DNA from: Solirubrobacteraceae bacterium
GTDB lineage: Bacteria > Actinomycetota > Thermoleophilia > Solirubrobacterales > Solirubrobacteraceae
NCBI GenBank assembly: GCA_035474295.1
Contig: DATINL010000036.1
Span: forward strand, 14,041 to 78,040
DNA length: 64,000 bases
Direction of reading: 5' to 3'
Part shown: positions 51,609 through 60,417 of the stretch, in pieces
How the letters are laid out: the number at the start of each line of letters is the position of its first letter
How positions within the stretch are numbered: the stretch's first letter is position 1
The notes under the pieces: generated by a model
Database searches by the model: none
What the model was told of the DNA's origin: nothing
What the model saw: only the letters and a program-made list of their open reading frames with translations
Program-made: the position numbers and the translations under genes

Positions 51609-52925
51609 ATGCGGCGCCGTTCCCTCGATCGCTCTCATCGTGCTGCCGGTTTGGCGCTGCTCACATGTGTCGTGTTCGTGCTGTGGCTGCAGCTCGGCGT
51701 CGGCGGCGCCACGGTCACCGACTACGTCGACGACCTCGTCACGGTGTTCGCCGCGCTGCTCGCAACCGTGCTGTGCGTACGCGCGCGTGCCCGCGTACGC
51801 GCCGGTACCGAGCTGCAGCAGAAGCAGCCGAGCACTGAGCCGCAGCAGAAGCAGCCGAGCACTGAGCCGCAGCAGAAGCAGCCGAGCACTGAGCCGCAGC
51901 AGAAGCAGCCGAGCACTGAGCTGCAGCAGAAGCAGCCGAGCACTGAGCCGCAGCAGAAGCAGATGGCTAGGTTCTGGACGCTGCTCGCCTGCGCCACCGC
52001 CTGCTGGACGCTCGCCGAGGTGATCTGGGCCGTATACGACCTGATCCTCGGCGAAAACGTGCCTGTGCCCTCCTGGGCCGACATCGGCTATCTCAGCGCG
52101 ATCCCGCTATCCGTTGCCGCGCTGCTCGCCCACCCCGCTGCTCACGGCACCAGCACGCGCAAAGCCCGCACCGTGTTCGACGGGCTGGTCGTCGCCACCG
52201 CGCTGCTGTTCCTCAGCTGGACGCTCCTGCTCGGCCCGCTGTGGCGCTCCACCGACCTCACCACCGCCGGCGGCCTGGTGTCGCTCGCCTACCCGTTCGG
52301 CGACATCGTGATCGTGTTCTTCATCGTGCTCGTCGTGCGCAACATGACCAGCGGCTCGCGTCTGTCGCTGTGGGCCCTGCTCGGCGGTCTGCTCGCGATG
52401 GCTCTGTCCGACAGCTTCTACACCTATCTCACCGAGCTCACCACCTACTCCACCGGCTCTGCCATCGACACCGGTTGGGTTGTCGCATATCTGGGTATTG
52501 CCCTGTCGGCGTACTTCTTCGACCCCGCCGACGCTCCCGTGCCCGCCCCCGCCCCCGCTTTCGCCGACGACCCCCCGCCCGCTCCAACACTCGTCGCGTT
52601 GATCTCCCCGCTGCTGCCCGTGCTGCTCGCGCTCACCGTCGCCGGCGTGCAGCTCAAGCTCGGCCACCATCTCGACCGCGCCGCCTGGATCATGGCGTTC
52701 GGCCTGATCGCGCTCGTGCTCGTCCGCCAAGCGCTGCTCGTGCTGGAGCTGCTCGCCCCGCACCCCGGGTCTGACGCCCGCCTGATGGATCGACTTGCGC
52801 TCGCCGCTCTCGGCGGCTCTGCCGCTAATTCTTCTGACACTCTGCGACCCGCTCCGCACGCCGGCAGCGGCCCCGCACAGCCCGTCGTCACCCCGGCTGT
52901 GCACCATCGCTACGAGGAGCTCTAA
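51609..52925 (+). CDS. Multi-pass membrane protein (sensor-like) with internal 9-aa tandem repeat
   Basis: About ten hydrophobic segments; PSWADIGYL, LAYPFGD, LSDSFY resemble membrane sensor regions of actinobacterial GGDEF proteins; no cytoplasmic output domain. Confidence 0.75.
   Translation: MRRRSLDRSHRAAGLALLTCVVFVLWLQLGVGGATVTDYVDDLVTVFAALLATVLCVRARARVRAGTELQQKQPSTEPQQKQPSTEPQQKQPSTEPQQKQPSTELQQKQPSTEPQQKQMARFWTLLACATACWTLAEVIWAVYDLILGENVPVPSWADIGYLSAIPLSVAALLAHPAAHGTSTRKARTVFDGLVVATALLFLSWTLLLGPLWRSTDLTTAGGLVSLAYPFGDIVIVFFIVLVVRNMTSGSRLSLWALLGGLLAMALSDSFYTYLTELTTYSTGSAIDTGWVVAYLGIALSAYFFDPADAPVPAPAPAFADDPPPAPTLVALISPLLPVLLALTVAGVQLKLGHHLDRAAWIMAFGLIALVLVRQALLVLELLAPHPGSDARLMDRLALAALGGSAANSSDTLRPAPHAGSGPAQPVVTPAVHHRYEEL
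51807..51962 (+). repeat. 27-bp coding tandem repeat, about 5.8 copies (TE[P/L]QQKQPS)
   Basis: ACTGAGC[C/T]GCAGCAGAAGCAGCCGAGC units read directly. Confidence 0.92.
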
Positions 52926-54488: not shown

Positions 54489-55490
54489 ATGCTCGTCAAT
54501 GAGCTTCAAGACGGCGTGGAGCTGGACCAGGTGCTGCTCGTGCGCCAGGTCGAACGCCGCCAGCGCCGCGACGGCGGCGACTACCTGCGCGTGCAACTCG
54601 GCGACCGCACCGGCGCGATCGCCTGCATGGTGTGGGACAACATCGGCGAAATCGAATCGCTTGCGCCCGCCGGCGCGCCTGTGCACGTGCGCGGGCGCTA
54701 CTCCGTGCACCCGCGCTTCGGCCCGCAGCTCAACCTGCGCTCGCTCTCAGCCCCCGCGCCCGGCACGTTCTCGCTCGACGACCTGCTCGACGGCCCGCCG
54801 CGCTCCGTCGCTCAGCTGGAAGCCGACCTGCGCGAGCTGCTCGCCACGATCCAGCAGCCCCATCTGCGCCTGCTGCTCGACCACGTGTTCGACCCCGGCT
54901 CGCCGCTGTGGGCCGGCTACCGTGACGCCCCCGCCGCGAAGTACTACCACCAGGCTTATCAGCACGGACTGCTCGAGCACTGCCTTGGCGTCGCCCAGGC
55001 CGTCAGCGCCATCTCCTCCACGTTCCCCGGCATCGACCGCGACGTCGCGGTCACCGGTGCGCTGCTGCACGACATCGGCAAGCTCGACGCGTACACCGAC
55101 GACCCGCAAGCGATCGACCTCACCGACCTCGGCCGCCTGCACGGGGAGATCCCGCTCGGCTACTACCGCATCCGCCGCGCGATCGAAGACATCGCTGGGT
55201 TCCCGCAGGAGCTCGAGCGCGCGGTGTTGCACATCATCCTCTCCCACCACGGCACGCTCGAGCACGGCTCACCTGTGGTCCCCTGTACGCGCGAAGCCAC
55301 ACTCGTGCACATGATCGACAACCTCGGCGGCCGCCTTGGCAGCTTCGACCGCCTGGAGAAGGAACTGCCGCCGGGCCAGCGCTGGACGAGCTTCGACCGT
55401 GCCATCGGCGGCGGCGCGTTCTTCGCGTCGCGCGAGCCCGTAGTGGCTCCGGCTGTCGTTCCCGCAGTTCCCGCGCGCGAAGCCGCGTAG
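54489..55490 (+). CDS. yhaM: 3'-5' exoribonuclease YhaM/CBF1 family (OB-fold + HD)
   Basis: LGDRTGAI..MVWD OB-fold, PAAKYYHQAY.HGLLEH, LLHDIGK, HIILSHHG. Confidence 0.88.
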   Translation: MLVNELQDGVELDQVLLVRQVERRQRRDGGDYLRVQLGDRTGAIACMVWDNIGEIESLAPAGAPVHVRGRYSVHPRFGPQLNLRSLSAPAPGTFSLDDLLDGPPRSVAQLEADLRELLATIQQPHLRLLLDHVFDPGSPLWAGYRDAPAAKYYHQAYQHGLLEHCLGVAQAVSAISSTFPGIDRDVAVTGALLHDIGKLDAYTDDPQAIDLTDLGRLHGEIPLGYYRIRRAIEDIAGFPQELERAVLHIILSHHGTLEHGSPVVPCTREATLVHMIDNLGGRLGSFDRLEKELPPGQRWTSFDRAIGGGAFFASREPVVAPAVVPAVPAREAA

Positions 55491-55589
55491 AGCTTCGCTC
55501 GAACGCCGAATCTCGGTCTTTGGCGTGAAGCCTTGACGGTCGGGTTGGATCTCGCATAGAGACCGAAATGGTGGCTACATTCCGGCCTG

Positions 55590-55967
55590 ATGCCGAGTCG
55601 TCTCTTCCACTACACGACACGTGATTTTGCGTGTGAGTGTCAGACAGACATGGACGTTGGTCGCCCGGTGCTCGTCGAAGTCTGGGACGGTCTCTATGGC
55701 CCAGGCTTCTACGCGTTGGACATTGGCCCCAAGGATGCCACGCGTGACCAGCTGCGTTGGGAGTGCTTCGGTGATTCAAGGCCGGATCATCCAATGGATG
55801 GTGTCTTGGTGCTCAATCCGGTGTTTGCAGATGTTCAATTCGCGAGGGTGGAAGAACGCATCTGGTTGATGAATGCATCGTGGGGCTCACGGACCTCGAT
55901 CGAAGGCATGATCGTGGCGATTGGCGAGTGGACGAGCAGTGGTTGGGAGGTAGAAGAGTACGAATAA
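55590..55967 (+). CDS. Stand-alone HYD1-type ADP-ribosyltransferase-like protein (putative toxin)
   Basis: LFHYT strand-1 motif and GLYGPGFYALDIGP..ATRDQL...FG, matching the Tox-ART-HYD1 pattern by eye; TACATT -10 just upstream of ATG (leaderless-like). Confidence 0.65.
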   Translation: MPSRLFHYTTRDFACECQTDMDVGRPVLVEVWDGLYGPGFYALDIGPKDATRDQLRWECFGDSRPDHPMDGVLVLNPVFADVQFARVEERIWLMNASWGSRTSIEGMIVAIGEWTSSGWEVEEYE

Positions 55968-56007
55968 CATCTAGTATCTCGATCCCAGGTTTGCTATTGT
56001 GTGGGCG

Positions 56008-56709
56008 ATGGCGGAGGCGCACACAAACAGATTGCGACGCAGTACGGAGTCACCGGGTTATTGGCTCGAAGGCAAGTACTACGAAGGATTCGCAGATGAC
56101 CCCTTGCTCCCTGAAGGCCATCGGCGGCGCATCGCCGCCTGGGCGCGTAAAGCCGGCACTCTGTCTGTCTCCCAGCAGGCGCTGCTGGAGTCGCCGCCTA
56201 CCCGTGGGCCGTCCGCGGCGCAGCAGCAGGCTGAAGCGCTTGCCGGATCTGAGACCAGCCCCATGTGGCGCTGTATCACTGAGGAAGAGCAGCAGATGGT
56301 GCGCGATCCCGGGGCCCACCCAATGCTCGCTGGCGTGAGCTATCCGCTCGGCATCGGGCAGCTCGCTTCGCTCACGGGCTCGACTCACGATCAGATTCGT
56401 CACTGGCACGAGCTTGGCCTGCTGCGCGCCCGCCGGAGCAAGGGCGGCCATCGCCAGTTCTTCGCCAATGCCGTGTTGCGTGCGTTCTTCCTGCGCAGGC
56501 ACATGTCTCAGCCGTACATCACAGTGCTGCGCGACATCAGCAAGCTCGAGGGCGCCCCGCTGCTTGCGGGCATGGCAACGCTGTTGCATGAGCAAGCGTC
56601 TCGGTTCGACAGCGTTGGGCACGACCTGCTTACACAGACGGCTCAAAACCTCGACCGGGTCAGCACCCTGTTCGCCGGGCGCCCGGGCACAGCGTCACCG
56701 ATCGTCTGA
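56008..56709 (+). CDS. MerR-type HTH protein with uncharacterised N-terminal domain
   Basis: LGIGQLASLTGSTHDQIRHWHELGLL.ARRSKGGHRQF; TGcTATTGT extended -10 seven bases before ATG. Confidence 0.75.
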   Translation: MAEAHTNRLRRSTESPGYWLEGKYYEGFADDPLLPEGHRRRIAAWARKAGTLSVSQQALLESPPTRGPSAAQQQAEALAGSETSPMWRCITEEEQQMVRDPGAHPMLAGVSYPLGIGQLASLTGSTHDQIRHWHELGLLRARRSKGGHRQFFANAVLRAFFLRRHMSQPYITVLRDISKLEGAPLLAGMATLLHEQASRFDSVGHDLLTQTAQNLDRVSTLFAGRPGTASPIV

Positions 56710-56870
56710 TTCAGCAGCAGCTGCTCCGGCGCCTTGCCTCCCGCCCGCACGCATGACCACGCCCACGGCCATTGCGTTAGGTACGAACCCGCCTGAATCC
56801 CGCAAATAGCGGGCCGAGCAGGCCGAGGAGTGGAGGTCCAAACCCAGCCGGGTTCTATCTTTGGAACCCA

Positions 56871-59075
56871 ATGGCAAAGGACACCGAGAAGCTGATCCGC
56901 CAGTTGTCGCTGATCTCATACCTGATGGCCGAGCGCCGGCCCGTCACGGCCCTCGAGATCCGGCGCGACGTGGAGGGCTACAGCGGCATGAACGAAGACG
57001 CGTTCGCCCGCCGCTTCTACGCCGACCGCTCGGAGCTCGAATCGCTGCGCATCCAACTCACCGTCGAGAAACCCGCCGACGGCGCCGCCGAGCAGGAGAA
57101 CTATTCGCTGCGCCCGGAGAACTTCCACCTGCCCGCGATCGAGTTCTCAGACCAGGAGCTCGCGGCGCTGCAAACCGCGCTGCACCTGCTCGACGGCGAG
57201 TTCGCCTACGCCGAGCCGCTGCGCCTCGCGCTGCAGCAGATCACCTGGGGCCGCCCGAGCCCGCTGCGCGCCCCCGAGCAGCGCTCGGTCGCACTCGGCA
57301 TCACCGCATCCGCCGGCGGCCATGACCTGTCGGCGCGTTTGACGAAGATCGAAACCGCGATCTTCCGCAACAAAACGATCACGTTCGACTACTACACGAT
57401 GGAACGCGACGACGTCGGCTCGCGCCGCGTCGACCCCTACCACCTGTTGTTCCAAGGCGGCGAGTTCTACCTGCTCGGGCGCGCGCACGAACGTGAGGCG
57501 ATTCGCGTGTTCCGGCTCTCGCGCATCCGCGGCAAAGTCTCCTACGCCACCAAAGCCGAGCACGACTTCAAACGCCCCGCCGACTTCGACCCGCGCTCCT
57601 ACGCCTCGCGTGCGGAATGGCAGTTCGGCGACGAGCTCGGCACCGCCGAGATCCTGCTATCCGAGCGCATCGCCTGGCAGATCGAGCGTCACTTCGGTCG
57701 CTACGGAGAGATCCTCGACGAGCATTCTGCCAGCAACGGCGGTGGTCATCGCGACCGCAGCGATCACAGCAGCGATCACAGCAGCGGCCACGGCCACGGC
57801 CACGGCGGCGACGCCGACGGCAGCGAGAGCGACGGCGACAAGCTGTTCCGCACCGGCTACTCCAACTCGCGCATGCTCGTCTCATGGGTGCTCGGGCTCG
57901 GCGAGCACGCTCGCCTGCAAGCCCCCCCCGAGCTCGTCGAGGAGCTCCAGCAGCGCGTCGCGCTGCTGGAGGAGCGTCACGCCGAAACCACGCTGCAGCT
58001 CGCTCCCGGCGCGCCCGCGCCGCCGCCCGCGCCCGTGCGCGCGCCGCGCACCTCCCGCCGCGCCGCCGCCGACGGCGATAGCGACTCCTCGCGCCGCAGC
58101 GAAACTGCGATTCGCCCGGAGCGCTTCGCGCGCCTGGTGACGCTCGCCAGCATCCTGATCACCTCCGGGCGCGCCGGCAAGCGCGTGTCGATCGCCGACG
58201 TGCGCGAGCGCCTGCAGCTCAGCGACGAGGAGCTGCGCGAAGACATCAACGTGCTCAACGTCGTCAACTTCGGCGGCGGCTCGTACGTGTTGTACGCGGA
58301 GATCCTCGACGACGAAGGCGAGATCGACGTCGACCCCGAGCCTTACAGCGACAACTTCGACCGTCCCGCGCGTCTGCTGCCGGTCGAAGCGAAAGCGCTG
58401 ATCGCCGCGATCGACCTGATCGGCGAGCACATCCCCGAAGGCTCGCTCGCATCCGCGCGCGAGAAGATCGTCACCGCGCTCGGTGAAGACCCGATGGAGC
58501 AGGGCCTGCAAGTCGCGCACGCCACCGGCAACGACTCCGAAGTCGCCTCCACGATCTCCCGCGCCATCACCGAGCACCGCCTGGTCGAGCTCGAGTACTA
58601 CAAGGAGAACGAAGACCAGTTCTCCCAGCGCCGCGTCGAGCCCTACGCGCTCACCAACGGTCGCGAAGGCTGGTACGTCGCGTCGTTCGACCCCCAGAAA
58701 GCCGAGATGCGCCACTTCCGCCTGGATCGCATCAAGCGCGCGGAAGTCACCGACCAAACGTTCGACCCGCGCCCCGAAGTGAACCCCGCTGCCGACGTCG
58801 ACGGCTGGATGCGCACCGGCGAAGTGCAAGCGTCGCGCACCGCACGCGTATGGATCTCCCCCGCGCGTGCGCGCTGGGCCCGTGAGCAGCGCCGCGTCGT
58901 CGAAGAGCTCAACGACGGCTCGATCGTCGTCGAGCTGAGCTTCGCCGGCGTCGACTGGCTGGTGCGCGAGATCCTCAAGGAAGCCGGCGACGCTGCCGTG
59001 CTCGAGCCGCAAGACGCACGCACAGCTGTGCTTGCCGCGGTTGCGCGTCTGCGCGGCGTCCCCGCCGGGGTCTAA
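56871..59075 (+). CDS. pafBC: Fused PafBC-type regulator (two HTH-WYL-WCX modules)
   Basis: Module 1 FARRFYADR.EL, RRVDPYHL..QGGEFYL, RVFRLSRI; module 2 ERFARL, RRVEPYAL...REGWYV, RHFRLDRI. Confidence 0.88.
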   Translation: MAKDTEKLIRQLSLISYLMAERRPVTALEIRRDVEGYSGMNEDAFARRFYADRSELESLRIQLTVEKPADGAAEQENYSLRPENFHLPAIEFSDQELAALQTALHLLDGEFAYAEPLRLALQQITWGRPSPLRAPEQRSVALGITASAGGHDLSARLTKIETAIFRNKTITFDYYTMERDDVGSRRVDPYHLLFQGGEFYLLGRAHEREAIRVFRLSRIRGKVSYATKAEHDFKRPADFDPRSYASRAEWQFGDELGTAEILLSERIAWQIERHFGRYGEILDEHSASNGGGHRDRSDHSSDHSSGHGHGHGGDADGSESDGDKLFRTGYSNSRMLVSWVLGLGEHARLQAPPELVEELQQRVALLEERHAETTLQLAPGAPAPPPAPVRAPRTSRRAAADGDSDSSRRSETAIRPERFARLVTLASILITSGRAGKRVSIADVRERLQLSDEELREDINVLNVVNFGGGSYVLYAEILDDEGEIDVDPEPYSDNFDRPARLLPVEAKALIAAIDLIGEHIPEGSLASAREKIVTALGEDPMEQGLQVAHATGNDSEVASTISRAITEHRLVELEYYKENEDQFSQRRVEPYALTNGREGWYVASFDPQKAEMRHFRLDRIKRAEVTDQTFDPRPEVNPAADVDGWMRTGEVQASRTARVWISPARARWAREQRRVVEELNDGSIVVELSFAGVDWLVREILKEAGDAAVLEPQDARTAVLAAVARLRGVPAGV

Positions 59076-59587: not shown

Positions 59588-59670
59588 CTCGCGCCTTTGA
59601 AGTCGGCCGGTCGCTCGAAAAGTGCGTGATTAGCAGCTAGAGTGTGCAGTATCGTGTGCAGAGGAGCCTG

Positions 59671-60417
59671 ATGCCAGAACCTGTCCTGCGTAACAGCCCA
59701 CTTTCGAGCGTCTTCTGCGAGGTGCGTTTCGAGGCCACCTCACTCGACTCGAGCGCGATCCTGCGCCTGAACGACCAGCTCGCGCTCACTGGCCTGACGC
59801 AGTACAGCGACGAGCAGGGCATGCAGATCGCTGTTCGGCCTGGGCAACTTCAGCAGACGCCGATCAAGCGCCATCGGTTCGCCAGCGCCGATGGGTCCGA
59901 AGCGCTGACGCTCGATGCCAACGCGTTTGCGTTCGAAGTCGCGGTCTACGGTGGCATTGACAGTTTCCTCGAGGCGTGGATGCCGGTTGCGCGCGCAGCG
60001 GGGGAAGCGCTGGGTCTCGAATCGCGCACACGCATCGGCCTGCGCTACGTGAATGAGCTGCCGCTGTCCGGCGACACACGTGACGCTGTCGCCGAGGCGA
60101 TCAAATCCGAGCTGCTCCCGCCATGGGCCGCCCAAGAGCACCTGCAGCAGCTGTCGGTTTCGCTGCACGAGCTGCGTTTCGGTCAGCCCGAGGGTGAGCT
60201 GACCTTCCGGCATGGCATGCAGCGCGCGGCTCCCGGTGCTCGACCGGTCTACCTCCTGGACTTCGATCACTACGAGCAGCGGCTGCGCGCCTTTGACGTC
60301 GACGACGACGAGCAGCGCCTACGACGCTTCAACGATGTTCTGTACAACGTCTTTCGCTGGTCGATAACCGATGCTCAGTACCAAGACTTCGATCCTGAGG
60401 AGCGCCCCGATGCCTGA
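59671..60417 (+). CDS. TIGR04255 family protein
   Basis: SPLSSVFCEVRF, RIGLRYVNEL, YLLDFD, LYNVFRWSIT; GAGGAG RBS. Confidence 0.85.
   Translation: MPEPVLRNSPLSSVFCEVRFEATSLDSSAILRLNDQLALTGLTQYSDEQGMQIAVRPGQLQQTPIKRHRFASADGSEALTLDANAFAFEVAVYGGIDSFLEAWMPVARAAGEALGLESRTRIGLRYVNELPLSGDTRDAVAEAIKSELLPPWAAQEHLQQLSVSLHELRFGQPEGELTFRHGMQRAAPGARPVYLLDFDHYEQRLRAFDVDDDEQRLRRFNDVLYNVFRWSITDAQYQDFDPEERPDA

Follow-up and report, generated by a model that had tools for sequence, protein, structure and literature searches.

The 64-kb window analysed here, that is, the whole 64,000-nucleotide stretch of Solirubrobacteraceae DNA, carries between a yhaM-like gene and a fused pafBC gene two short genes that we call A and B, the first encoding a stand-alone protein with motifs like those of ADP-ribosyltransferases (ARTs) and the second a protein with a MerR-type winged helix-turn-helix (wHTH) in its middle. 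Together they form a horizontally acquired, mobile accessory unit. As to what this unit does, we favour, at an even chance and from sequence comparison and structural modelling, a toxin-first type II toxin-antitoxin (TA)-like or defence module in which A would be a minimal ART-like toxin and B its MerR-fold antitoxin and autoregulator. A preliminary description of the same DNA had proposed a new TA or defence module at this place; the obligate pairing, the mobility and the persistence of B without A speak for it, while the ART fold, NAD+ use and toxicity of A, its binding and neutralisation by B, the binding of an operator and a role in defence are what we infer.

The association of the two genes, for which the preliminary description had suggested a neighbourhood search, is strict. 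In every A locus, about 22 distinct loci in unrelated contexts, a B homologue lies immediately 3' of A on the same strand, usually at a spacing of 10-45 bp (in L030 the start of B overlaps the stop of A by one base), and this holds over A identities from 74% down to 29-35%, with B identity tracking A identity across loci. The count comprises L001-L006, 12 genome loci, L039-L041, G575, G597 and the most distant A loci. Where A is most distant (29-35% identity), its partner has no recorded Pfam match, yet hhalign aligns these partners to the B profile with probabilities of 98.5% and 99.7%, and the match takes in the N-terminal GYWxG...DDPxL...RxRIAxWA motif of B. Among the roughly 22 A loci there is none in which A stands without B. 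The converse does occur: in G663 (L034 1406-2244) a full-length B and the conserved spacer are preceded by only the last ~45 nt of A, the remainder being replaced by unrelated sequence after a 420-residue gene, and homology to the closest intact cassette (L017) starts at that remnant; in G501 there is a C-terminal fragment of B and no A, and in L016 and L019 a frameshifted A precedes an intact B, sequencing error being a possible cause. This asymmetry of presence and absence is the pattern predicted for a toxin-antitoxin pair, and the B-only derivative indicates that a promoter of its own is enough for B. Two small, adjacent, co-oriented genes kept as a pair in unrelated contexts, the presumed toxin being lost while the presumed antitoxin stays and never occurring alone, is what is looked for in a type II TA system.

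That the unit was acquired is evident from the insertion site. The gap between yhaM and pafBC measures 1380 bp here, as against 78-330 bp in all nine congeneric genomes compared, which thus represent the empty site. The insert starts directly 3' of the yhaM stop codon, and on its right side the sequence resumes as ...GCCTGA-ATCCCGCAAATAGCG, exactly what succeeds the yhaM stop in empty sites; the relatives read ...GCGGCCTGA followed directly by A(n)TCCGCAAATAGCG, and the same motif is found here at 56800-56811. A direct repeat between the two junctions (GAAGCCGCGTAG / GAACCCGCCTGA) is imperfect (8/12) and contains the yhaM stop; apart from it, neither terminal inverted repeats nor a clean target-site duplication flank the insert, and no recombinase gene was found in the cassette. 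DNA homology between cassettes of different genomes extends from ~27 bp before the ATG of A (~55563) to ~20 bp before the stop of B, so that the unit transferred consists of little more than the two genes and their short control regions. Neither yhaM, pafBC nor xthA lies nearby in any of 18 other loci. Some copies adjoin integrases and transposases, some a FitA-PIN pair, one an AAA_15/AAA_21 and DUF4276 gene pair, and some sit among ordinary metabolic genes. The distribution is sparse: A is present in 3 of 301 sampled genomes of the order (the window's own included) and B in 5 of 301, the 12 matches to A among species-representative genomes are all Solirubrobacterales metagenome-assembled genomes (MAGs), and A was not found in phage, plasmid and IMG/VR viral-contig collections. 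As a separate observation on one of these contexts, in a soil MAG (L040 7135-8930) the AAA_15/AAA_21 ATPase gene begins 27 bp after the cassette and is followed by the DUF4276 gene, with an Xre-HTH (helix-turn-helix) gene upstream and a LexA-like gene downstream, which looks like a defence-island or mobile-element setting.

Base composition also sets the insert apart. The overall GC content of the window is 67.3%, and that of the insert is 61.6% compared with 69-70% in its flanks; gene A has 55.8% GC (63.5% at third codon positions, GC3) and gene B 65.0% (GC3 75.6%), against 70.2% for yhaM and 68.6% for pafBC, both with a GC3 of 88-89%. The GC-poor patch relative to yhaM and pafBC that had been noted earlier is thus borne out, although the dip is mild over B except in its 5' part, where, as in A, it is strong.

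Both genes are real, beyond what chance open reading frames would give, as judged from family-wide invariant residues and from the ratio of nonsynonymous to synonymous substitution rates (dN/dS), which for A lies at 0.11-0.19 against seven homologues and thus denotes purifying selection. The 125-residue reading frame followed 40 bp later by a MerR-HTH protein, as first described, is confirmed for both members. Protein A reads MPSRLFHYTT...YGPGFYALDIGP...ATRDQLRWECFG. The recorded automatic gene call (P0001) is only 99 residues long, falling ~26 N-terminal residues short (55590-55667), and lacks the LFH7YT motif with its invariant His, while the homologues are called at 125 residues; we favour the 125-residue form because the N-terminal motif is conserved and a -10 element precedes it at a fixed distance. 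For B, the list of open reading frames includes an alternative GTG start at 55999 (236-residue form), and we place the start at the ATG at 56008 because the homologues align to it.

The family of protein A is small and closed: a search of 5.8 billion clustered proteins yielded 50 relatives, one of 1.8 billion yielded 31 representative clusters, and profile iteration ends at 68 proteins. All of the roughly 68 relatives are stand-alone, ~100-145 residues long and without Pfam annotation, and in all of them the His motif lies at residues 5-9; A itself has no carrier domain or signal sequence, in keeping with the earlier view of a cytoplasmic-type protein. Three long matches in the representative search (P0066, P0072 and P0075) were rejected as unrelated repeat proteins. 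Across an alignment of 35 sequences reaching down to 29% identity, H7, T9, G37, G39, Y41, F60 and W119 are invariant, and L5, Y8, A42, C59, G71, L73 and F84 nearly so. The full pattern, LFH7YT ... YG37xG39FY41A[LT]D, holds an ART-like motif I (H7-Y-T) and motif II (G37-x-G39-F-Y41). In PARPs, the counterparts of these H-Y-E-clade motifs are H-G-[ST] and GxGxYF, and at the level of sequence we identify the pattern in A with motifs I and II of the H-Y-E-clade ARTs. Candidates for the third catalytic residue are D70, which is invariant in the 29 closer sequences and N or S in 6 of the 35 members, and E88, at a position just before the IWLM strand that is acidic in about three quarters of members.

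Searches with the whole family extend this likeness. In a scan at E<=10, PF15633 (Tox-ART-HYD1) is the only Pfam family matched by more than one member of A, namely by 6 of 35, with a best E of 0.0016 and best scores of 19.5, 18.2, 14.7, 12.8 and 12.4 bits against a gathering cut-off of 25 bits; the alignment begins with LFHYT at profile position 1 and ends with the GxGxY strand at positions ~42-54 (of 97). When the family profile was compared with PDB sequences, the PARP domain of ZAP/PARP13 came out best, aligning over both motifs at the same spacing (E 0.86); such searches with A family profiles returned non-significant matches only. No match was obtained for the window protein in Pfam, NCBIfam, PADLOC and PHROGs, nor for any of the 35 members in the latter two. 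The AlphaFold2 model of A is a confident one (predicted local distance difference test, pLDDT, 92.8; predicted template-modelling score 0.87) with the order beta1-alpha1-beta-beta-alpha2-beta..., and among its best matches in the BFVD fold database are phage 'PARP catalytic domain' proteins. A scan of 401 genomes of the phylum with PF15633 for genuine HYD1 domains gave a single sub-threshold match, a 294-residue DUF2971 protein in another actinobacterial genome (L007 886-1770, minus strand) that starts LLFHYTS and whose N-terminus scores 20.9 bits. DUF2971 has been proposed to be ART-like and close to HYD1, DarT and AbiGi (bioRxiv 10.1101/2024.07.30.605764), a proposal that both the start and the PF15633 match of this protein fit. 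It provides no bridge from A to HYD1, as hhalign between the A family and the DUF2971 protein aligned the LFHYT motif alone (probability 13%).

Several of the results weigh against an ART-like toxin. Profile iteration reached no annotated ART, and the window protein itself matches neither PF15633 nor any other ART family at E<=10. The PF15633 matches of its relatives all fall below the cut-off and cover the first half of the profile only; the HYD1 type originally proposed is therefore too strong a label. No acidic third residue is invariant across all 35 sequences. The fold comparison likewise went half way: small ART-type toxins head the list, six of the ten best PDB matches, small proteins of the size of A, being TreTu (three chains; the tip of an Rhs toxin and an ART toxin), Tne2 (an NADase effector) and CC0527/DUF952 (two entries), with PARP1 catalytic domains lower in the ranking, but none of the Foldseek matches is significant (best E 0.4, template-modelling (TM) scores 0.33-0.39); Tne2 and CC0527/DUF952 we take to be members of the ART superfamily. 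The best BFVD match, at E 4.8e-3 and TM 0.52, is an unnamed protein. On the genetic side, the evidence for B without A comes down to one clear case (G663), and the two loci in which A is frameshifted and B intact (L016, where 4 nt are deleted, and L019, where 1 nt is inserted) are from long-read MAGs and may reflect sequencing errors. Finally, a MerR protein beside a small enzyme also has the look of a regulator next to the gene it regulates. On balance, we regard A as probably a divergent, minimal ART-fold protein that is related to HYD1 without being a member of it.

The identity of protein B is clearer in one part and new in another. The MerR-HTH assignment holds on both sequence and structure: B matches PF00376 with 38.5 bits (cut-off 28.2; residues 119-154 of the 236-residue form) and PF13411 with 30.7 bits (cut-off 21.6), and Foldseek gives probabilities of 1.00 to TnrA, GlnR, RacA, BldC and classical MerR proteins. 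The layout is not canonical for MerR, in that the HTH is central and comes after a conserved 112-residue domain, instead of an N-terminal HTH with a coiled coil and a C-terminal sensor, and B scores far below all cut-offs of the NCBIfam MerR equivalogs (CueR, ZntR, SoxR, MerR, HspR and others). Within the N-terminal domain G17, D30, D31, R39, R41 and W45 are invariant; its model consists of a three-stranded sheet and then five helices, four of them of <=8 residues, with block-mean pLDDT values of 87-91 up to about residue 60 and 68-73 in a variable stretch at 61-80. This domain has neither a Pfam match nor a PDB fold match, and a database search with it returned 12 close relatives only. We propose it as the part that binds and neutralises A, and the C-terminal helices are probably a dimerisation region. 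Since B contains no macrodomain, NADAR or other hydrolase domain, neutralisation would work by binding or repression and not by reversal of a modification.

The preliminary description had read a -10 element before each gene, and both are present. Of 15 homologous cassettes, 11 have the hexamer before A, as TA[GC]ATT, at an unchanged distance, the sequence further upstream not being conserved. Its position suggests a leaderless or near-leaderless mRNA. The 40-bp spacer between A and B is as conserved as coding DNA and contains a palindrome with the consensus CTAGTATC-NN-GATCCYAG, which is conserved across 13 cassettes, the A-less one included, and is the sole such site in the window, where 0.22 would be expected; it stands before B, not before A. 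It is followed by TTGCTAnnnT, conserved before B at a fixed distance across cassettes, and both palindrome and -10 element are kept in the A-less G663 locus. The conserved elements point to an internal promoter and a candidate operator for B, and the separate antitoxin promoter suggested at the outset gains support from the conserved regulatory sequence that B has before it. Scans for an E. coli-type sigma-70 consensus and for terminators were uninformative.

Combining these elements, one could picture the module as follows. Protein A would be a minimal, 125-residue cytoplasmic enzyme of the H-Y-[D/E] ADP-ribosyltransferase type, in which an NAD+ pocket like that of PARPs and HYD-type toxins would be built from the GxGxY41 strand and from His7 of strand 1, and which, when free, would ADP-ribosylate an essential macromolecule or hydrolyse NAD+ and thereby arrest growth. 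Protein B would be both antidote and regulator, its novel N-terminal domain binding and blocking A, and its central wHTH binding the 18-bp spacer palindrome to control its own -10-only promoter. Both genes would be co-transcribed from the leaderless promoter before A, with the internal promoter supplying an excess of B, and loss or inactivation of B (through cassette loss, stress or phage attack) would set A free. A role in abortive-infection defence is possible; only some of the cassette copies lie near defence-like or mobile genes. A further-reaching version, which we put forward tentatively and would call doubtful, is that A founds a new family of minimal (~125 residues) cytoplasmic H-Y-D/E ART or NADase toxins, held in check by an undescribed domain fused to a MerR-fold protein, in a module that would serve abortive infection or addiction and move from one intergenic site to another in Solirubrobacterales, with no recombinase gene of its own.

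Of the alternatives, the one that fares best, although we consider it unlikely, is a non-enzymatic regulatory pair, with A as a small beta-rich partner of B (a co-repressor, anti-repressor or signal receiver) whose H and Y motifs would be structural or ligand-binding. It stays alive because every ART signal is below significance, and the want of an invariant catalytic acid in A fits it as well; the closest structural relatives of B are the minimal MerR-type factors TnrA, GlnR, RacA and BldC, the first two of which are controlled by a protein partner, and strict co-occurrence would suit any obligate protein pair. Set against this, the residues of A that never vary coincide exactly with both NAD+-pocket motifs of H-Y-E ARTs, at the right spacing, ART proteins dominate its best fold matches, and a 1.3-kb mobile unit without target genes that lands in unrelated contexts would be an odd regulatory pair; in the window, the palindrome occurs only inside the cassette.

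Quite unlikely, in our view, is a mobile resistance unit in which A would be an Arr-like ADP-ribosyltransferase acting on small molecules, for inactivation of antibiotics or xenobiotics, and B its MerR sensor. In its favour, the MerR family includes the textbook sensors of drugs and stress; protein A, from a soil actinobacterium, is minimal, stand-alone and H-Y-D-like; resistance genes share the mobility and sporadic occurrence of the cassette; and a palindrome lies within a promoter spacer region. That palindrome, however, precedes B and not A; the Arr family of Pfam was unmatched by all 35 members of the A family at E<=10 and does not appear among the 50 best PDB fold matches; the HTH of B is central, with an extra domain before it and no C-terminal ligand-binding domain of the TipA or BmrR kind; and a B-only derivative and decayed copies of A would be unexpected if A were useful cargo. 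Highly improbable is an orphan tip, a C-terminus detached from a secreted polymorphic toxin of the Rhs/LXG type and retained, along with its immunity gene, to recombine into full-length toxins. Stand-alone toxin cassettes have been described (Zhang et al. 2012, PMC3482391), the weak similarity of A is to a domain defined in polymorphic toxins and its best PDB fold match is the Rhs tip TreTu, but the ~68 members all stand alone, carry the His motif at residues 5-9 and have a conserved -10 element of their own, no long carrier-domain relatives were found among 1.8 billion representatives, the partner is DNA-binding and not of Imm type, and Rhs, LXG and secretion genes are not nearby in any locus examined.

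Should the TA-like module be the correct reading, A would be among the smallest ART-type toxins known and the first to be paired with a MerR-fold antitoxin, and the N-terminus of B would be a new domain that presumably blocks an ART active site. NAD+-using toxins (DarT, ParT, MbcT, CmdT) are central to TA and anti-phage biology, and each new family has brought a new target or mode of neutralisation. The locus also offers an unusually clean natural experiment in a poorly studied order of soil actinobacteria, since the 1.3-kb insert can be compared with nine empty sites and with a derivative that has lost the presumed toxin gene. Comparative genomics makes a strong case, and both proteins are small and lend themselves to work in laboratory hosts; on the other side stand the narrow distribution, in uncultured Solirubrobacterales, and an enzymology that is a matter of inference.

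Table 1 Coordinates of the cassette, its genes, domains and control elements, and the adjoining genes (positions in the window)
Feature	Position	Strand	Description and basis
Inserted cassette	55491-56784	+	~1.3 kb; absent from the yhaM/pafBC intergenic region in 9/9 congeners
Gene A	55590-55967	+	125 aa, stand-alone, ART-like motifs; conservation, AlphaFold2 model, fold matches, dN/dS
Gene B	56008-56709	+	233 aa, MerR wHTH in mid-protein; ATG 40 bp after gene A
B N-terminal domain	56008-56343	+	aa 1-112; motif LRRSxDPxGYWLGxxFxxGFxDDPxLPEGxRRRIAxWAR
B MerR-type wHTH	56353-56481	+	aa ~116-158 of the 233-aa form; Pfam and Foldseek
B C-terminal helical region and stop	56482-56709	+	four helices, aa 153-224; alignment, model, fold search
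-10-like hexamer TACATT	55576-55581	+	8 nt before the ATG of A
Imperfect palindrome CTAGTATC-TC-GATCCCAG	55971-55988	.	18 bp, in the A-B spacer; candidate operator of B
Extended -10-like element TGcTATTGT	55992-56000	+	7 nt before the ATG of B; candidate internal B promoter
Left junction GAAGCCGCGTAG	55479-55490	+	last yhaM codons and TAG stop; YhaM C-terminus ...AREAA* kept as in relatives
Right junction GAACCCGCCTGA	56785-56796	+	relic-like copy of the yhaM 3' end with TGA stop as in empty sites
YhaM-like gene (HD+OB)	54489-55490		upstream neighbour of A; domain scan
Fused pafBC	56871-59075		WYL, WCX and HTH_PafC domains; downstream neighbour of B; domain scan

The cassette landed just upstream of two elements that stay intact and that, judged by sequence, are probably the pafBC promoter or a regulatory site. 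The first, CCGCAAATAGCG (56800-56811), lies upstream of pafBC right after the yhaM stop and is near-identical in congeners except the most distant one, L029; the second, TTCTATCTTT (56856-56861), follows ~45 nt later as a -10-like TATCTT, 9 nt before the pafBC ATG, and is conserved in congeners. In the pafBC gene itself, PafB and PafC are fused into a protein of 734 residues with an acidic, His-Gly-rich linker (…HSSDHSSGHGHGHGGDADGSESDGD…), and in relatives the match also runs beyond the junction (query residues to ~500). Elsewhere in the window, a multi-pass membrane protein (51609-52925) has an N-terminal loop in which a 9-residue unit (QQKQPSTEP/L) occurs six times in tandem (about 51740-51900), and a gene of the TIGR04255 family (59644-60417; 104 bits) heads a short operon just downstream of a PNPOx-like gene.

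Among characterised families, A comes closest to Tox-ART-HYD1, with which it shares the H motif near the N-terminus, on strand 1, and, at matching spacing, the aromatic G-x-G-x-Y. Of the conserved [RK] and [DE] signature residues of that family (Zhang et al. 2012, PMC3482391), the [RK] is not found in A, which has no conserved R or K between H7 and Y41. The match is confined to profile positions 1 to ~54 of 97 and remains below the gathering cut-off, A is stand-alone and not the C-terminal tip of a secreted polymorphic toxin, and its partner is a MerR-HTH protein where that of HYD1 is Imm-My6CBD; A thus lies outside Tox-ART-HYD1 on score, architecture and immunity partner.

As a genetic system, the cassette invites comparison with DarTG, in which the ART toxin DarT is paired with a macrodomain or NADAR antitoxin and which is mobile and sporadic and has roles in defence. 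The likeness lies in the order, with the gene of a cytoplasmic toxin, for A putatively of ART type by sequence, preceding that of the antidote, and in the mobile and sporadic occurrence; the difference is that A has no similarity to DarT/DUF4433 (PADLOC, 0/35 members) and that the DarTG types of antitoxin domain are missing from B. In the RES-Xre systems (ParST, MbcTA), an NAD+-using toxin is blocked by direct binding of an HTH antitoxin, and a pairing of this sort is what we propose for A and B; the RES toxins, however, have an R-E-S signature in place of the H-Y-D/E of A, the Xre gene comes first there, and the HTH is of the Xre and not the MerR type. Arr is a stand-alone actinobacterial ART of ~140 residues with an H-Y-D triad that inactivates rifamycins, and, unlike the toxin that we propose for A, it is a resistance enzyme; it gave neither a Pfam match nor a place among the listed PDB fold matches. 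By the comparisons made, A is unrelated to DarT, to the RES toxins and to Arr. With HigBA and MqsRA, the former of which had been named at the outset as a model, there is a resemblance of layout in the upstream toxin gene and in a separate promoter-like element before the antitoxin gene; the proteins are unrelated, and the promoters of A and B are predicted ones. The combination in B of a DNA-binding domain with an extra conserved domain is likewise reminiscent of type II antitoxins.

The nearest precedent for a MerR-family protein as the antitoxin of a two-gene mobile module is that of the MerR-PIN operons, which have been classed in silico as type II TA systems (PMC10669575). In those operons the MerR gene precedes that of the toxin, a PIN RNase, and B has a 112-residue N-terminal domain unseen in other MerR proteins. 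In the literature searched, MerR-type antitoxins are proposed for PIN toxins only (PMC10669575), and neither the A nor the B family, nor an ART-MerR module, was found in Pfam, PADLOC or that literature, in agreement with the earlier statement that no MerR-fold antitoxin was known to accompany a HYD1 ART. ART toxins in TA or defence modules are a concept already known, while the two protein families and their combination appear to be new.

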